DNA of 64,000 nucleotides from Minisyncoccota bacterium (GCA_041389065.1 JAWKSM010000002.1:1556-65555); one strand, 5' to 3'; numbered from the stretch's first letter, positions 4,828 through 49,519 are shown. Numbers and translations: made by a program. Notes: a model not told the origin generated them from the sequence alone.

Positions 4828-6230
4828 TTAAAAATCGTTAAACGCACTTTCGGCACCAGAATCTGTCACCGCGCTATATCCTTCCATATGTTTTTCAATA
4901 GAAAGGAAAGTCGAGTTCTTTTCGTCGAAATACAAATCAGCTTTTCCAAGCGGACCATTTCTGTGTTTTTCGATAAGAACTTCTGTCATTCCGTTACTTT
5001 CTGTGTCTGATCTGGTGTTTCCGGCTCGGTCTTCTCGGTGAATAAACATAACAACATCGGCGTCTTGCTCGATCGAACCAGAGTCTCGAAGGTCAGAAAG
5101 ACGAGGTTTTCCGCCACGAGATTCAACGGCACGAGAAAGCTGTGAAAGTGCCAAAACAGGAACATCGAGTTCACGAGCCAAACCTTTTAGTGATCGTGAA
5201 ATTTCAGTAACTTGGTTTACCATTGAATCGTAGTTTTTACTTGTCATCATAAGTTGAAGGTAGTCAACAACAATCAAATCAAGTCCGTGTTCACTTTTCA
5301 TTTTTCTTGCGACTGATTTCATTTTCATTATTGAGTTTCCAGCTTGATCATCGATAAATATCTTTGCTTTTGAAAGTTCGCTCAAAGCTTCTTGAAGTGC
5401 TCCAAAATCTTGTTCGGCAGAAAGTTTTCCCGTTCGAAGTTTCCAAGCGTTCACTTTTGATTGTGCGGCGAGCATTCTTTGAGTTAGTTGGTTCGCACTC
5501 ATTTCGAGTGAGAATATTGCCACAGAAGATCCGTGTTTTGTTGCAGAGTTTCGAGCAATATCAAGAGCCAAAGTTGTCTTACCGACAGATGGTCTGGCTG
5601 CGAGAATAATCAAGTCAGATTTTTGAAGTCCAGCTAAAATGTTGTCTATTGAAGGATATCCAGTCGGCACACCTCTCATTCCACCTTTGCTTTCTTGTAA
5701 TTTTTCAAGTTCTTCCCAAGTTTCGTGAAGAGATTGTTTAATACTTACAAATTTTTTATCTCCACCGCCGGCATTTGTCACAGCAAAAACTTTTTTCTCG
5801 ACAGTGTCTAAAATATCTTCTACTTCATCGGCATTTTCTGCAAAAGCTGTTTCTGCCATAAATTCTCCAGCTTCGATTAATTTTCGAAGTACGTGTTTTT
5901 TGTGAACTATTCCCGCATAGTGTTTTATGTTTGTCGACGCCGGAACAGAATTTGTGAGTTCAATAATATATGATCTTCCGCCCACAGTTTCGAGCTGACT
6001 TTTTTCTTTTAGTTTTGTTGTAACAGAAAGTAAGTCTATTGGCTCGTTTTTGTTAAAGAGGTCGAGCATTGCTTTGTAGATTATTCGATGCTTTTCAGCA
6101 TAAAAAGAATCAGCGAAAATTGTGTCGATTATTTCGTTTAGTGCATCTGGGCGAAACGTATAGAACCCAAAACAGCTTTTTCTGAATCGAGACTATTTGG
6201 AGGTATTCTCATGTTTGATTGATTACTCAT
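4828..6230 (-). CDS. dnaB: Replicative DNA helicase DnaB, with the N-terminal ~25 codons in another frame (1-nt indel near 6150-6165)
   Basis: The 413 aa ORF has Walker A (ARPSVGKTTLALDIA) and DnaB C-terminal motifs. Upstream hand translation gives MSNQSNMRIPPNSLDSEKAVLGSI..., and after a frame change ...PDALNEIIDTIFADSFYAEKHRIIYKAMLDL, which is the normal DnaB N-terminus. Confidence 0.88.
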
Positions 6231-6293
6231 TGGTCTGATTTTAGCACAATAGTCGCCTCAAATCTTTCGGTGGGGAAAGAGTGGAAAAAGGTA

Positions 6294-6505
6294 TTGACAA
6301 TTTTATTAAAATAGTTTAAAAAGTGTATCCTAATCAAAAACGGACCAAATGCAGATAAGACCGCCGTGAATGTTCTTTTAGGTGTTTCCAATATTGGACA
6401 GAGGTCAAGGTTTGGGAGAACCTTGGGTTTTGGTAAAGGTATTCGGAAAACCGCCAATGCGACTTACCTGACAAGGGGCTCTAAAAGGGCCCCTTTGTTA
6501 TTTTT
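6294..6505 (+). ncRNA. Candidate small RNA unit U0 (promoter to terminator, no credible ORF)
   Basis: TTGACA at 6294-6299. GC-rich body with hairpin CAAGGTT-TGGGAG-AACCTTG. Terminator AGGGGC...GCCCCT (6474-6494) plus TTGTTATTTTT. Divergent from dnaB. The longest ATG ORF is 6 codons. Confidence 0.35.
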
Positions 6506-6513
6506 ATAAATGC

Positions 6514-6711
6514 TTGACAAATATTTTGGATATGATATACTCTATTTTGTAATAGTACTTCGCTGCATGGCAGCCACAAGGTTTAATCACTCACAAACCG
6601 GCTATAGGCCATAATAACAAAGCTCTGTCCGCATACCCAGAGAATCCCGGAGTTCTCTGATGGGCTTACTAGCCCAACGGAACCCCGCCACATTGGTCGG
6701 GGTTCTTTTTT
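6514..6711 (+). ncRNA. Candidate small RNA unit U1 (promoter to terminator)
   Basis: TTGACA (6514-6519), 16 nt, TGaTATACT extended -10 (6533-6541). Hairpins GCTGC-ATG-GCAGC and CAGAGAA-TCCCGGA-GTTCTCTG. Terminator GAACCCCG...CGGGGTTC (6680-6705) plus T6. Only a 15-codon ORF with no context. Confidence 0.4.
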
Positions 6712-6730
6712 CATTTATTTCTATGAGCGC

Positions 6731-6892
6731 TTGACAAATATTTTGAATATGATATACTTTATGCAGTAATAAAAAGTTCTTAACACAGGTTATCTCAGCA
6801 CGTGTCCAATTTTGGCCGGATTAATGTGTGCATTAATACCTTTCTTCCTATGGAACCCCGTTGCGCAAGCGACGGGGGTTCTTTTCGTTTTT
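6731..6892 (+). promoter_or_regulatory. Unit U2: promoter, ~125-nt leader and intrinsic terminator directly upstream of trpS (candidate attenuator/leader RNA)
   Basis: The promoter is nearly identical to that of U1 (TTGACAAATATTTTGAATATGATATACT). Hairpin GGATTAATG-TGTG-CATTAATACC. Terminator GAACCCCGT...ACGGGGGTTC (6853-6881) plus a T-run ends 27 nt before the trpS ATG. UGGAACCCCG sits at the 5' foot of the stem. Confidence 0.45.
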
Positions 6893-6919
6893 ATATAGGT
6901 ATCTGATAAAATATTAAGT

Positions 6920-7895
6920 ATGAATAAAAAAATTTTAGTTTCTGGAATAAAGCCGACAGGAAATCTACATCTTGGAAATTATTTTGGCGCAATGAAGCAG
7001 TTTGTTGAAATGCAAAATTTTGGAGAATACAACCCTTTTGTTTTTTTGGCTGACTATCACGCTCTTAATTCAATACAAAACAGGGAAGAGATGAAAAAAC
7101 TTTCTTTTGATTTGATCTGTGCATATCTGGCTGTGGGACTTGATCCTCAAAATGACTCTTTACAGACAGTCATCCTCTTCCAGAACACGCAGAGCTTACT
7201 TGGATTTTTCAATACTTTGGTTTCAATGCCTTGGCTTGTCGCGCTCATGCTTTTAAAAGTGCAGAAGCTAAAGATAAAGAAATAAATATTATGAACTTGT
7301 TATCCAGTTTTGATGCGTGACATCTGATGTATGACGCAGATATCGTGCCTGTAGGACAAGACCAAAAGCAACACGTGGAAATGGCTCGCGAGATTGCTAG
7401 AAAATTCAACCAAACTTTTTAGGAGAAACTTTTAAAGAACCAAAGAAATGATTAAAGAAGAAGTGGCTGTTGTGCCTGGAATAGACGGACAGAAAATGAG
7501 TAAAAGTTATAAAAATGTAATTCCACTTTTTGGTTCAGAAGAAGAAATTAAAAGCTGTTATGGGTATTATGAAGTGACTCAAAAAATCCAGAAGACAAGA
7601 AAAATCCAAAGACGAAGTTGTGATATATCAGATTTATAAACTTATGGCGACAGAAGACGAAAGATTTGCGATGGAAAAAGGATTGAAAGAAGGTGGAATG
7701 GGATATGGCGATGCAAAAAAAGAGCTTCTTAGAAAAGTTTTAGAATATTTTGGTCCAATGAAGCAAAAGTATGACGAGTTCCAGAAAAATCCTGAAAAAG
7801 TCTATTCTATTTTAGAAGAAGGGGAGGAGAAGAAAGTAAGAAAATTGGCAGAAGAAAAAATGAAGAAAGTTAAAGAAGCTGTGGGGTTGATGTAA
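6920..7895 (+). pseudogene. trpS: Tryptophanyl-tRNA synthetase, reading frame broken at least 5 times
   Basis: N-terminus MNKKILVSGIKPTGNLHLGNYFGA (HIGH-type). Fragments in other frames read ...[31 protein letters not shown], ...GETFKEPKE, MIKEEVAVVPGIDGQKMSKS (KMSKS), and a C-terminal 91 aa ORF. Breaks coincide with A/T homopolymer runs. Confidence 0.85.
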
Positions 7896-7940
7896 AATAA
7901 GAGCGGCGCCGAAGGGGCGCACTCTTTTATTTCTTAAAAC

Positions 7941-8614
7941 TTAAGGTCTTGCGATAACGTTAAAGTCTAGTGTGAAAATGTCATTTATGATTGCATCTCC
8001 CAAGTCACTGAAAAATGTTTCAGAACCATATTTAACATCCCAATTTGCTCGGTTTACTTCTGCTGTTCCAGCCATTGCGATATTTCCATTTTCTGTAATA
8101 ACTTTTACTGGAATCATTAGAGGAGCTGTTTTTCCTTTAAGAGTTAGATTTCCGTTTAGTGTGTATCCAGAATCTGTTTTTCTTTGAATCTGTAACTTCG
8201 TATTTTGCTTCTGGATATGTTTCTACTTCAAAGAAGTCTTCTGACTTCAAGTGTTCACTAAGTTTGTCTACTGTAACCTTGGTGTTCGAAGTTTCTTCAC
8301 CTGTTATTGAAGTCATATCAAAAACAACTTCACCTCCTGTTATCATTCCTTTATCAAAAACAACTGTTCCTGATTTGATCTTAATACTTCCAGAGTCTTC
8401 GTAGTTTTTAATAATTTTTTTACCTCCTGTCCATTTTGCAGAACTTGCCTCTGTATCAAAAACGTATGTTCCTGACATATCTTTTTCTGGCATTTGTCCA
8501 GCTAAAGCTTCTTCGTTCGTCATATTTTGATCAGCAGCTTTTTTGTTTTTTAGAAAACTCATTATTCCAAAAACTACAAAAGGCTAATATGATTATTGTT
8601 AGTACAAATTTCAT
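7941..8614 (-). pseudogene. YceI-like periplasmic/anchored protein, at least 2 frameshifts
   Basis: The 141 aa ORF (..HLKSEDFFEVETYPEAKYE..) continues in another frame as DSGYTLNGNLTLKGKTAPLMIPVKV...WDVKYGSETFFSDLGDAIINDIFTLDFNVIARP. Signal-like MKFVLTIIILAF is upstream in a third frame. Shifts fall at a T-run (~8575) and an A-run (~8175). Confidence 0.6.
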
Positions 8615-10894: not shown

Positions 10895-10984
10895 TGTGTG
10901 TCGGTTTTTGGTTCGTGTTGTGTAAGAACGGATGTTCGGACTTATTTTACATATAAACCATTTTATTTCAAATGTTTTTTGAGT

Positions 10985-24030: not shown

Positions 24031-24060
24031 GAAGACCCTCGCACGTGGCGGGGGTCTTTC
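24031..24060. terminator. Convergent terminator between gltX and cassette E
   Basis: GAAGACCCTCGC-ACGTG-GCGGGGGTCTTTC imperfect stem. The T-run (TTTTTTATCT) is strong on the minus strand. Confidence 0.65.
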
Positions 24061-24079
24061 ATCATCAGGCCTGTATGAC

Positions 24080-24286
24080 CTAACGACGACGTCTGTTGCG
24101 CACCTTGGCTGCGCTCCTGCAGGAACGGAACTTCGGTTGTTTCCTGACACCATACCGCTTCTTCGGCGGTTTGAGGTATTCCGCCATCTGGCCGGAAGCC
24201 TCGATGTTCGAGGTGATGGAAGCACTGACTTCCACAGGACTCAGTGCGAAGGTGACCAGGGCCACCAAGATAATGAGCTTTTTCAT
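24080..24286 (-). CDS. Small secreted, strongly cationic protein (GC-rich cassette E)
   Basis: 68 aa. Signal-like MKKLIILVALVTFALSPVEVSA, then ..KPPKKRYGVRKQPKFRSCRSAAKVRNRRRR. The two other long ORFs at this locus (24019-24225 on the same strand in another frame, 24096-24317 on the plus strand) lack a start context. Confidence 0.55.
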   Translation of the reverse strand: MKKLIILVALVTFALSPVEVSASITSNIEASGQMAEYLKPPKKRYGVRKQPKFRSCRSAAKVRNRRRR

Positions 24287-24313
24287 GTTCGGTGAATGTG
24301 TTGGTTTAAGTAT

Positions 24314-24342
24314 ATAATATCATATTTAAATATATTTGTCAA
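24314..24342 (-). promoter_or_regulatory. Promoter of cassette E (shared promoter module)
   Basis: Minus strand reads CTTGACAAATATATTTAAATATGATATTAT. TTGACA (24337-24342), 17 nt, TATTAT (24314-19). Confidence 0.6.
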
Positions 24343-24404
24343 GTATTAAATTATTTTTAAGTTATCCACACCAGACCTTTGTAAATAGGGTATTATAGAA
24401 GGTA

Positions 24405-38871: not shown

Positions 38872-38954
38872 GCTTTAGAAAGTGATGCTAGCTTAGCTCG
38901 GAAAAAGAAGTGTATAGACACTTCTTTTTCGGGCGAGTTCATCACTTTCTTAGC
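38872..38954. repeat. Orphan 83-nt long imperfect hairpin
   Basis: Outer 11 bp AGAAAGTGATG/CATCACTTTCT, middle CTCG/CGAG, inner 12 bp GAAAAAGAAGTG-TATAGA-CACTTCTTTTTC. It lies in a noncoding gap; the listed ORFs across it look spurious. Confidence 0.6.
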
Positions 38955-39082
38955 TAAAATTGAATAAATTTTAGATATATTTTTCTGCGTCTTGAACTTT
39001 TGTTTCTTTTCCTTCAAGGGAAAAGAAAATAGACTTTTCATTAAAAAAGCAAAAACAAATCTTGTTTTTAAAAGAGAAATCA

Positions 39083-49219: not shown

Positions 49220-49293
49220 AACAAAAAGGATATTAACACAAGTAGTTTTATAAATCAAGAGTTAAATATTTTAAATTTTATGAACAAAACCCT

Positions 49294-49319
49294 TTACTTT
49301 TTTCATGATAAAAAAGTAA
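49294..49319. promoter_or_regulatory. Perfect 10-bp inverted repeat upstream of the rpmE promoter
   Basis: TTACTTTTTT-CATGAT-AAAAAAGTAA, about 35 bp upstream of the rpmE -35 box. Confidence 0.35.
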
Positions 49320-49348
49320 CAAAAACTCTAGACCCACACTTCACACCT

Positions 49349-49443
49349 AAAAATAGTAGATTTTAAGCCAAAAAACAACAAAACTCGGAAAGCTTAGGCT
49401 TTCCTCAAACAGTTGTTGTTTTTAAGGCAAACTCTACTATTTT
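49349..49443. repeat. Orphan 95-nt long imperfect hairpin
   Basis: Paired blocks AAAATAGTAGA/TCTACTATTTT (11 bp), AAAAACAACAA/TTGTTGTTTTT (11 bp) and GGAAAGC-TTAG-GCTTTCC (7 bp), separated by internal loops. Confidence 0.6.
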
Positions 49444-49490
49444 CTTAACAGTGTTCTCGTGTAGGGTCGGAAGTGGATAATTTACGCTTA

Positions 49491-49519
49491 TTGACAAAAT
49501 ATATTAAATATGATATATT
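49491..49519 (+). promoter_or_regulatory. Promoter of cassette J (shared promoter module)
   Basis: TTGACA (49491-96), 17 nt, TGaTATATT extended -10 (49511-19). Confidence 0.6.

Follow-up and report, generated by a model that had tools for sequence, protein, structure and literature searches.

The dnaB-trpS gap and its three units

We analysed a stretch of 64,000 nucleotides (hereafter the window) from a Minisyncoccota bacterium (GCA_041389065.1, JAWKSM010000002.1:1556-65555), an uncultivated member of the Patescibacteria/Paceibacteria (candidate phyla radiation, CPR); its GC content is 36.3%. Our subject is the gap between dnaB, which lies on the minus strand with its true start at the ATG at 6230-6228, and trpS, which lies on the plus strand with its ATG at 6920. 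A preliminary description had recognised in this gap three head-to-tail units, here called U0, U1 and U2, each running from a promoter to a terminator, and had taken them for a family of paralogous small RNAs (sRNAs) or for duplicated leader RNAs. The three units are real, and no curated RNA family explains them. Judged from their sequences, they are probably small RNA genes and not copies of one another. U0 is the most solid of the three and appears to be a credible new structured RNA with a conserved mini open reading frame (mini-ORF).

Each unit combines a sigma-70-type promoter with an intrinsic terminator (Table 1). The TTGACA promoter that had been assigned to every unit was found with a perfect -35 box in U0, U1 and U2, but the -10 box of U0 is only TAAAAA and was not called by the consensus scan. 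The U0 promoter stretch AAATAGTTTAAAAAGT is almost invariant across the seven homologues introduced below. The promoters of U1 and U2 are nearly identical, as had been stated: a 30-nt pattern occurs exactly twice in the 64 kb against none expected, and the repeat reaches 57 nt at 84% identity. A terminator with a T-run closes each unit (6473-6495 in U0, 6679-6705 in U1 and 6856-6877 in U2). Those of U0 and U2 were picked up by a scan for terminator-like hairpins followed by T-runs (4 found versus 1.1 expected), and that of U1 has a longer loop and is visible in the fold. Internal hairpins are present at 6405-6426, 6638-6659 and 6820-6837 in U0, U1 and U2, respectively. The reported GC enrichment of the bodies is evident in U0 and U1 (0.43-0.54 versus 0.36 for the window) and weaker in U2 (0.35-0.45). 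Relative to shuffled sequence, the folds have z values of -4.1 for U1, -2.5 for U2 and -1.4 for U0. No long conserved ORF was found in the gap, as had been proposed, but U0 carries a conserved ORF of 6-7 codons.

The Rfam searches left the gap without a match, and none of the units matches a described RNA class. At gathering score, the sole match of Rfam 15 in the 64 kb was one tRNA outside the gap, and cmscan of 6100-7000 at E <= 10 returned only sub-threshold terminator look-alikes, none of them credible. No family was matched at gathering score in 12 related loci, and searches at permissive E of the gaps of L100 and L096 (relatives are denoted by L numbers) yielded terminator look-alikes only. 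Neither 6S, SRP, RNase P nor tmRNA reached the gathering threshold in the 64 kb, and ARAGORN detected no tmRNA in the window and nothing in the gap. A sub-threshold CRISPR-DR7 match (E 0.14) to the promoter/5' region of U0 was rejected, because half of the match precedes the likely start of transcription and no array was noticed. These results support the description of the units as putative independent, non-protein-coding transcription units of an undescribed class.

Table 1. Positions of features in the window and of the units that occupy the same slot in relatives.
Feature	Position	Strand	Description
dnaB extended -10 box TGCTAAAAT	6238-6246	-	7 nt ahead of dnaB ATG; kept in gaps of all relatives
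Paired DnaA-box-like motifs GGTGGGGAAAG / AGTGGAAAAA	6269-6289	+	between dnaB promoter and U0 -35
U0 promoter	6294-6322	+	-35 TTGACA at 6294-6299, 17-nt spacer, weak -10 TAAAAA at 6317-6322
U0 RNA (predicted)	6326-6505	+	~180 nt: A/C-rich leader, mini-ORF, GUUCUUUU spacer, stem domain, terminator
U0 mini-ORF	6349-6369	+	AUG CAG AUA AGA CCG CCG UGA (MQIRPP-stop)
GUUCUUUU spacer motif	6372-6379	+	2 nt past mini-ORF stop; in 6/7 U0 homologues (GUUAUUU in L004)
U0 stem domain	6380-6469	+	closing stem strands 6380-6392 / 6459-6469, hairpin 6405-6426, mini-hairpin 6444-6453
U0 intrinsic terminator	6473-6505	+	stem 6473-6495, T-rich tail to 6505
U1 promoter	6514-6541	+	TTGACA, 16-nt spacer, TG-extended TATACT; 11/12 matches in promoter scan
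U1 RNA (predicted)	about 6548-6712	+	~165 nt: variable 5' half, hairpins 6638-6659 and 6662-6675, terminator 6679-6705, T-run
U2 promoter	6731-6758	+	near-duplicate of U1 promoter; TTGACA, 16 nt, TG-extended TATACT; 11/12
U2 RNA (predicted)	about 6765-6892	+	~125 nt: 5' AAGUUCUUAAC (6774-6784), hairpin 6820-6837, terminator 6852-6881, T-run to 6892
trpS extended -10 box TGATAAAAT and ATG	6904-6922	+	box 6904-6912, ATG at 6920; box 7 nt before ATG
Small GC-rich gene	24040-24343	-	68-aa protein, signal peptide, basic C-terminus; antisense between two plus-strand genes
Palindromic repeat	38906-39039; 49286-49476	-; +	~130-190 nt (...AAGCCAAAAAAC...hairpin...GTTTTTAAGGCAAA...)
Small ORF (smORF) of relatives	L092:1735-2070; L100:3375-3752; L094:3472-3855; L103:2001-2420	-	84-139 aa, adjoins dnaB
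LR of relatives	L100:2600-3060; L103:1450-1915; L006:1400-1845; L095:3520-3845; L098:3540-3885; L113:1560-2010	- (L113: +)	noncoding, about 330-460 nt, dnaB-proximal, U1/U2-type promoter
LR2 of relatives	L096:3250-3900; same region of L097	-	~570 nt, GC-rich, U1/U2-type promoter, several CCUUCGGG-type hairpins
U3 of relatives	L092:1010-1230; L003 gap 1125-1330; L094 gap 600-800	- (L092)	directly upstream of trpS; TGTATAAT promoter

Structure and coding content of U0

Distinct homologues of U0 number seven, namely that of the window and those of L092, L003, L004, L048, L100 and L113. A covariance model (R1), built from four relatives with the window excluded, matched the window at 6326-6505 with 55.8 bits (E about 5e-12) and found no other significant copy there. 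In the alignment of the seven sequences, which was fitted to the model, 89.9% of the cells pair and 18 of the 45 pairs are changed on both sides. Either value was reached by 0 of 500 column shuffles, and the slid controls gave at most 52% pairing and at most five double-change pairs. Covariation in homologous intergenic regions, proposed earlier as a check on the units, is thus present in U0. The closing stem (helix 2), which extends up to 12 bp and encloses an inner stem and a hairpin, shows double-sided changes in 7 of its 12 pairs across the homologues and is clean over 11-12 bp in L092. Compensatory changes relative to L092 were also found in the terminator stem (GGGGCUC/GGGCCCC versus GGAGCC/GGCUCC). 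We regard the covariation as good but not conclusive, because most of the double changes split the window/L092 pair from the other homologues and because the alignment was fitted to the structure.

The mini-ORF, which is in frame in all seven distinct homologues, covers the 'single-stranded' part of U0 that is conserved best. The window and L092 share AUG CAG AUA AGA CCG CCG UGA (MQIRPP-stop). L048 has AUG ACA CAG CCA CGA CCG CCG UAA (MTQPRPP-stop), and the other peptides are MTQSRPP-stop in L003, MKQSRPP-stop in L100 (...UCG CGA CCG CCA UAA), MKQIRPP-stop in L004 (...AUC AGA CCA CCG UAA) and MIQPRPP-stop in L113 (...CCA CGA CCA CCG UAA). In the codons for R-P-P-stop, all changes are silent or stop-preserving (CGA/AGA; CCG/CCA at two different codons; UAA/UGA); by our own count, of all single changes that these 12 nt could undergo, about one third would be silent. 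The UCA/UCG and AUC/AUA changes are likewise silent. The start codon is shifted in the window and L092, and the in-frame ORF is nevertheless retained. A regular-expression scan of both strands for ATG followed within 10 codons by R-P-P-stop yielded one site in the 64 kb window, and in 153 kb of the relatives' loci this pattern was found in the U0 homologues only. CAG and CCG are minor codons of the host genome, each accounting for 17% of its synonymous family. A conserved small ORF with a coding signature, which the preliminary description had considered as a possible explanation of the whole region, therefore does exist in U0, but it spans only 21 of ~180 nt.

The A/C-rich leader of U0, which has no Shine-Dalgarno motif, resembles the genuine translated leaders of the host. 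A Shine-Dalgarno motif is missing from all of 30 window genes. In many of these, a TAnAAT -10 box precedes the ATG by 6-8 nt, which suggests leaderless mRNAs, and others carry A/C-rich leaders (e.g., CACAACACGAACCAAAAACCGACACACA). Taken together, the gene starts suggest that the host organism as a rule initiates translation on leaderless mRNAs or without a Shine-Dalgarno motif.

Several other readings of U0 were considered and rejected. An RNA-level cause of the mini-ORF conservation, i.e., ACGG/CCGU pairing, fails in L100 and L113, where the pairing is broken. A GAGAAC loop with which the GUUCUU spacer could pair is present in only four of the seven homologues. Longer ORFs on either strand of U0 amount to stop-free frames of 42-65 codons, which are startless and are broken or shifted in L003, L004 and L100. 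A search of the 64 kb and of the related loci for sites complementary to the conserved segment of U0 gave none.

The spacer motif GUUCUUUU reappears near the 5' ends of U2, of the units U3 and LR (described below) and of some mRNA leaders. In the window, GUUCUU(U) is located at 6372, 6702, 6774, 6878, 54747(-) and 10950(-), and it is also seen at the 5' ends of U3 and LR in the relatives. In unrelated units and some mRNA leaders it stands 10-50 nt from the predicted 5' end, and it recurs at terminators, in the tail and the 3' arm. Genome-wide enrichment is not seen, as 17 copies on both strands of the 64 kb are near our own chance estimate.

Relations among the units and the variable slot beside dnaB

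The proposal that the units are tandem-duplicated paralogues of one sRNA, or duplicated leaders of trpS, sharing a functional terminator-proximal motif, draws on their head-to-tail arrangement on one strand directly upstream of trpS, on the U1/U2 promoter repeat and on the GGAACCCCG...GGGGTTCTTTT shared by the terminators. The bodies of the units, however, are unrelated. Multiple alignment joins only the promoters and terminators, and the pairwise local alignments of the bodies score no better than shuffled sequence (the fractions of shuffles reaching the observed score were 0.32, 0.07 and 0.06). The motif that had been described near all three terminators is, in U1 and U2, the terminator's 5' arm and, in U0, an internal mini-hairpin in a non-equivalent position. 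Moreover, the U1/U2 promoter type also stands before the small protein gene at 24343(-), at 49491(+) and before unrelated RNAs and protein genes in the relatives. This recurrence at unrelated genes identifies the parts shared by U1 and U2 as the standard strong promoter and terminator of the lineage, which are no evidence of a shared RNA, albeit the U1/U2 promoter and terminator were possibly duplicated locally. As for the leader version, a TGATAAAAT box that belongs to trpS itself follows the last terminator, the window and all relatives have a TGnTAnAAT element 6-8 nt ahead of the ATG, and the unit just upstream of trpS varies by genome. A T-box leader, with its Stem I and specifier loop and its conserved T-box sequence in an antiterminator, would share a transcript with the synthetase gene that it regulates. 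T-box (RF00230) matched neither 6100-7000 in cmscan at E <= 10 nor any of the 12 related loci at gathering score, no other leader model matched, and neither a T-box nor a Trp leader peptide for trpS could be upheld, there being no Trp codons. We therefore consider both the paralogue and the leader readings wrong and largely refuted; that either should apply after all is very improbable. The gene at 24040-24343(-) itself has a terminator similar to those of the units.

U1 appears to be a plausible, less conserved sRNA gene with a fast-evolving 5' half. Its 3' module of three hairpins is common to the window, L003 and L004, with one A-U to G-C swap, and a second model (R2) scored 27.1 bits with all three hairpins aligned. 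No conserved ORF was found in U1 (15 aa in the window, none in L003 and 12 aa in L004). It presumably acts in trans as a base-pairing RNA. A role as a CsrA sponge was rejected, since the GGA of the U1 loop is kept in neither L003 nor L004. U2 may be a young or decaying unit of doubtful function, as far as its sequence suggests. Its one homologue, that of the sister strain (L092/L105-L111), exceeds it by ~60 nt and has no counterpart of the 6820-6837 (ATTAATG) hairpin of the window.

In most of the relatives, dnaB and trpS are divergent neighbours, and the content between them is modular. The slot holds U0-U1-U2 in the window; smORF (111 aa)-U0-longer U2-U3 in L092, whose flanks are 95% identical at the nucleotide level and whose order recurs in further Logan contigs spanning the region; smORF-U0-U1-U3 in L003 = L050; and smORF-U0-U1 in L004. 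It holds palindromic element-smORF-U0-tail of U3 in L048/L049, smORF-U0-LR in L100/L101 and L113, smORF-LR in L103, LR alone in L006, L095 and L098, the different 570-nt GC-rich unit LR2 in L096/L097, smORF-U3 in L094 and the smORF only in L005. The L092-type strain is present in SRR11577118/9, SRR26421927/30, SRR25822718 and SRR27197494/5. Units have come and gone between strains at 95% identity. The junctions point to recombination among repeated TTGACA promoters: in L092, the body of U2 is fused to the upstream half of the U1 promoter, and in the window, the -35 box of U0 is fused to the DnaA-box-like motif, with loss of the smORF.

This modularity also bears on the possibility that the units (U2 above all and, less certainly, U1) are what is left of small protein-gene cassettes, made up of a strong promoter, a short ORF and a terminator, from which the ORFs were lost, and are transcribed junk in a recombination-prone spacer. 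The slot of the relatives holds small protein genes with the same style of promoter and terminator, the smORF has gone from the window apparently by deletion between two TTGACA boxes, and the gains and losses between near-identical strains fit as well. U2 in particular starts with AAGUUCUUAACAC, which resembles the mRNA leader of a transporter gene at 10971(-), and differs from its sole homologue by a 60-nt indel and the loss of a hairpin. Nevertheless, tblastn detected no remnant of the relatives' small proteins in the gap of the window, the 3' hairpins of U1 are kept in three genomes that share no ORF, and U0 covaries and is kept without a long ORF in seven genomes, the longer stop-free frames on both of its strands not being conserved in frame. 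We hold this possibility to be unlikely.

The units seen in the relatives deserve description in their own right. The smORF family comprises fast-evolving small acidic proteins in which ...DESPxP...NxLG... is conserved towards the C-terminus. No Pfam domain is precomputed for it, and it forms only six clusters among 5.8 billion proteins. LR has the appearance of a large structured RNA of Paceibacteria, so far undescribed; RNAalifold predicts 46 pairs, of which 21 carry compensatory double changes. A conserved A/C-rich stretch of LR is followed by AUG-X-stop (AUG AGU UGA, AUG AGG UAA, AUG ACG UAG or AUG ACC UAG). LR had no match in Rfam and no copy in the window, and homology to U1 or U2 was rejected, as nhmmer found none. 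LR2 gave terminator look-alikes only in Rfam. U3 is absent from the window. Its 5' CGACC..GUCGUUCUUU segment includes an early hairpin that resembles a terminator, an alternative pairing is possible, and the GAUCyCCGCUCC...terminator at the 3' end is conserved. The palindromic repeat, also present in the gaps of L006, L048, L051, L052 and L100, may be an element resembling miniature inverted-repeat transposable elements (MITE-like) or a structured element; its copy at 49286-49476 ends at a GTGGATAA motif just ahead of a strong promoter. Two promoter/5' patterns scanned against viral contigs gave no match.

On the dnaB side, relatives of the DnaB ORF were found at 100%, 92% and 91% identity in metagenome-assembled genomes labelled Saccharibacteria, Paceibacteria or Patescibacteria, and an intact full-length DnaB (P0001, 467 aa) is encoded on a sister-strain contig. 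The -10 box lies so close to the dnaB ATG that a leaderless dnaB mRNA is implied. The DnaA-box-like pair is kept as TGTGGATAGAGTGGAAAA in the relatives. Motifs of this kind (TGTGGATAA / AGTGGAWAA) occur at 6269-6289, 13786, 24362, 49472 and 54794 in the window, 5-25 nt upstream of the -35 boxes of several strong promoters and not at dnaB alone, and may be a transcription-factor or DnaA site common to highly expressed small genes. An origin of replication (oriC) was rejected, as the GC skew tracks the gene strand and the motif is also found upstream of other strong promoters.

Putative function of U0 and comparison with known systems

We lean, with modest confidence, towards a joint explanation. 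The dnaB-trpS spacer would be a variable 'small-RNA island' of independent, mutually unrelated transcription units, and U0 would be a translated RNA that pauses ribosomes, which is our best guess for its function. Release is slow for peptides that end in prolines, and Arg-Pro-Pro is similar to the cores of arrest peptides. According to this explanation, ribosomes would load on the A/C-rich leader of U0 without a Shine-Dalgarno motif and translate the 6-7-codon mini-ORF. They would be held up right where the stem domain begins, since termination at Pro-Pro-stop is slow, and the degree to which they occupy U0 would in turn govern how it folds, how stable it is or how it terminates. U0 would report or use the translation status, i.e., the capacity in prolyl-tRNA, elongation factor P (EF-P) or release factors, and a useful peptide would not be its product. 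Alternatively, and again with modest confidence, U0 may act in trans on the translation machinery.

A rival in cis is that U0 is a classical ribosome-dependent transcription attenuator with read-through into the downstream units and trpS. In this model, a ribosome stalled on the Pro codons or the stop would leave the 3' strand of the long stem available for pairing with the 5' terminator arm (UUCCUA-ACC-UAGGAG). The order of the elements, a mini-ORF with regulatory-looking codons, a long stem and a terminator, is that of an attenuator, and five of the seven homologues have an alternative hairpin of 5-6 bp, in which the terminator arm pairs with the 3' strand of the stem. However, this hairpin is far weaker than the stem and terminator together. 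In constrained folding, a ribosome placed at the stop codon covers the RNA no further than the first pair of the closing stem, and the stem and terminator form regardless. Furthermore, a new strong promoter lies ~10-20 nt past the U0 terminator in six of the seven genomes, and in the seventh, L048, the tail of U3 and the own promoter of trpS follow U0. Both the footprint result and the new promoter argue against a classical attenuator, which we judge decidedly unlikely, and the translated, ribosome-pausing RNA is favoured instead.

The preferred explanation has points against it as well. Because a ribosome at the stop codon gets no further than the base of the stem, and the terminator forms with or without it, a classical attenuation switch is not supported, and what follows U0 is another promoter and no gene that it could regulate. 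The closing stem of U0 is partly mismatched in the window copy, the covariation comes from seven sequences in two sub-clades aligned by fitting to the model, and an ORF of 6-7 codons yields few informative sites. The statistical support for U1 is weak, since its 27-bit score is no higher than the range of terminator-only matches. U1 is missing from the common strain type and U2 outside two strains, so that both are dispensable. Finally, frameshifts break dnaB (6140-6180), trpS (6920-7900) and yceI (7944-8580) in the window, and these genes are intact in close relatives; compared with the sister strain, trpS shows 82.5% identity with 15 gap openings and dnaB 95%. The frameshifts are either indel-type assembly errors or local gene decay; the assembly appears to be indel-prone, so single-base details of the gap may be wrong and need caution.

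It is attractive to speculate further that U0 is an abundant, free-standing 'ribosome-pausing RNA', on which ribosomes load without a Shine-Dalgarno motif and are held at Arg-Pro-Pro-stop against a rigid stem, and which senses or buffers prolyl-tRNA, EF-P or release-factor capacity in trans. The slot at dnaB would then be an exchangeable expression site for unrelated structured RNAs of Paceibacteria, including the ~450-nt LR with its AUG-X-stop minigene. We consider this extended version unlikely.

Almost nothing is known on regulatory RNAs in Patescibacteria (CPR), and a full-text literature search retrieved no paper describing sRNAs of this group. U0 provides a concrete candidate that is conserved and covaries, with an unusual pairing of a Pro-Pro-stop mini-ORF and a structured domain. 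Found in an organism apparently without Shine-Dalgarno-based initiation, it may serve as a test case for the sensing of translation status in reduced genomes. The variable RNA slot beside dnaB is also a practical place to mine more CPR RNAs, such as U3, LR and LR2. If nothing is expressed from it, the region would be a recombination-scarred spacer only.

Tandem clusters of sRNAs with individual promoters and terminators are known from Listeria (LhrC1-4), E. coli (OmrA/OmrB) and rhizobia (AbcR1/2). The gap resembles them in that short noncoding promoter-to-terminator units stand head to tail in one intergenic region. Unlike those clusters, whose members are related paralogues sharing a seed, the units of the gap have unrelated bodies and share the promoter and terminator alone.

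Leader-peptide attenuators and proline-sensing leader ORFs include trpL, hisL and Salmonella mgtL/mgtP. Like these, U0 has a very short ORF with informative end codons upstream of a structured RNA and an intrinsic terminator, and M(x)Q(x)RPP-stop appears to provide the short ORF with conserved regulatory codons expected of an attenuator. In contrast to them, U0 has no regulated gene within its unit, its geometry bars melting of the stem and its ORF has only 6-7 codons.

Termination is slow, or arrest occurs, at C-terminal prolines, as in Pro-Pro-stop pausing and in TnaC (...Arg-Pro-stop). The nascent chain of U0 would likewise end in Arg-Pro-Pro right before the stop, and Arg together with Pro-Pro at the peptidyl-transferase centre makes up the core of the arrest motifs that are known. 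RAPP/RGPP arrest peptides have been described (PMC12992588; PMC10951233). The RAPP type has a C-terminal R-(A/G)-P-P core and is encoded upstream of a regulated gene, and RAPP-like cores are insufficient alone, as they also require the N-terminal region next to them (PMC12992588). Since both the R-(A/G)-P-P core and the N-terminal region are required, U0 is not a member of the RAPP family: its motif is x-R-P-P-stop, its 6-7 residues are too short to reach the constriction of the tunnel, and no regulated gene lies downstream.

Finally, minigene or tRNA-sequestering RNAs are represented by the bar minigenes of phage lambda and by the CreT RNA toxins of CRISPR-associated CreTA modules. Unlike CreT, in which tandem rare codons come right after the start, whose cognate antitoxin CreA is found beside cas genes and whose expression arrests growth, U0 has its minor codons at the end of the ORF, and no CreA-like partner was seen; neither a CRISPR array nor cas genes were noticed in the window, though no systematic search was made. 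U0 is like the minigene and CreT RNAs in being small and apparently strongly promoted, with a mini-ORF containing minor codons as its sole coding content.

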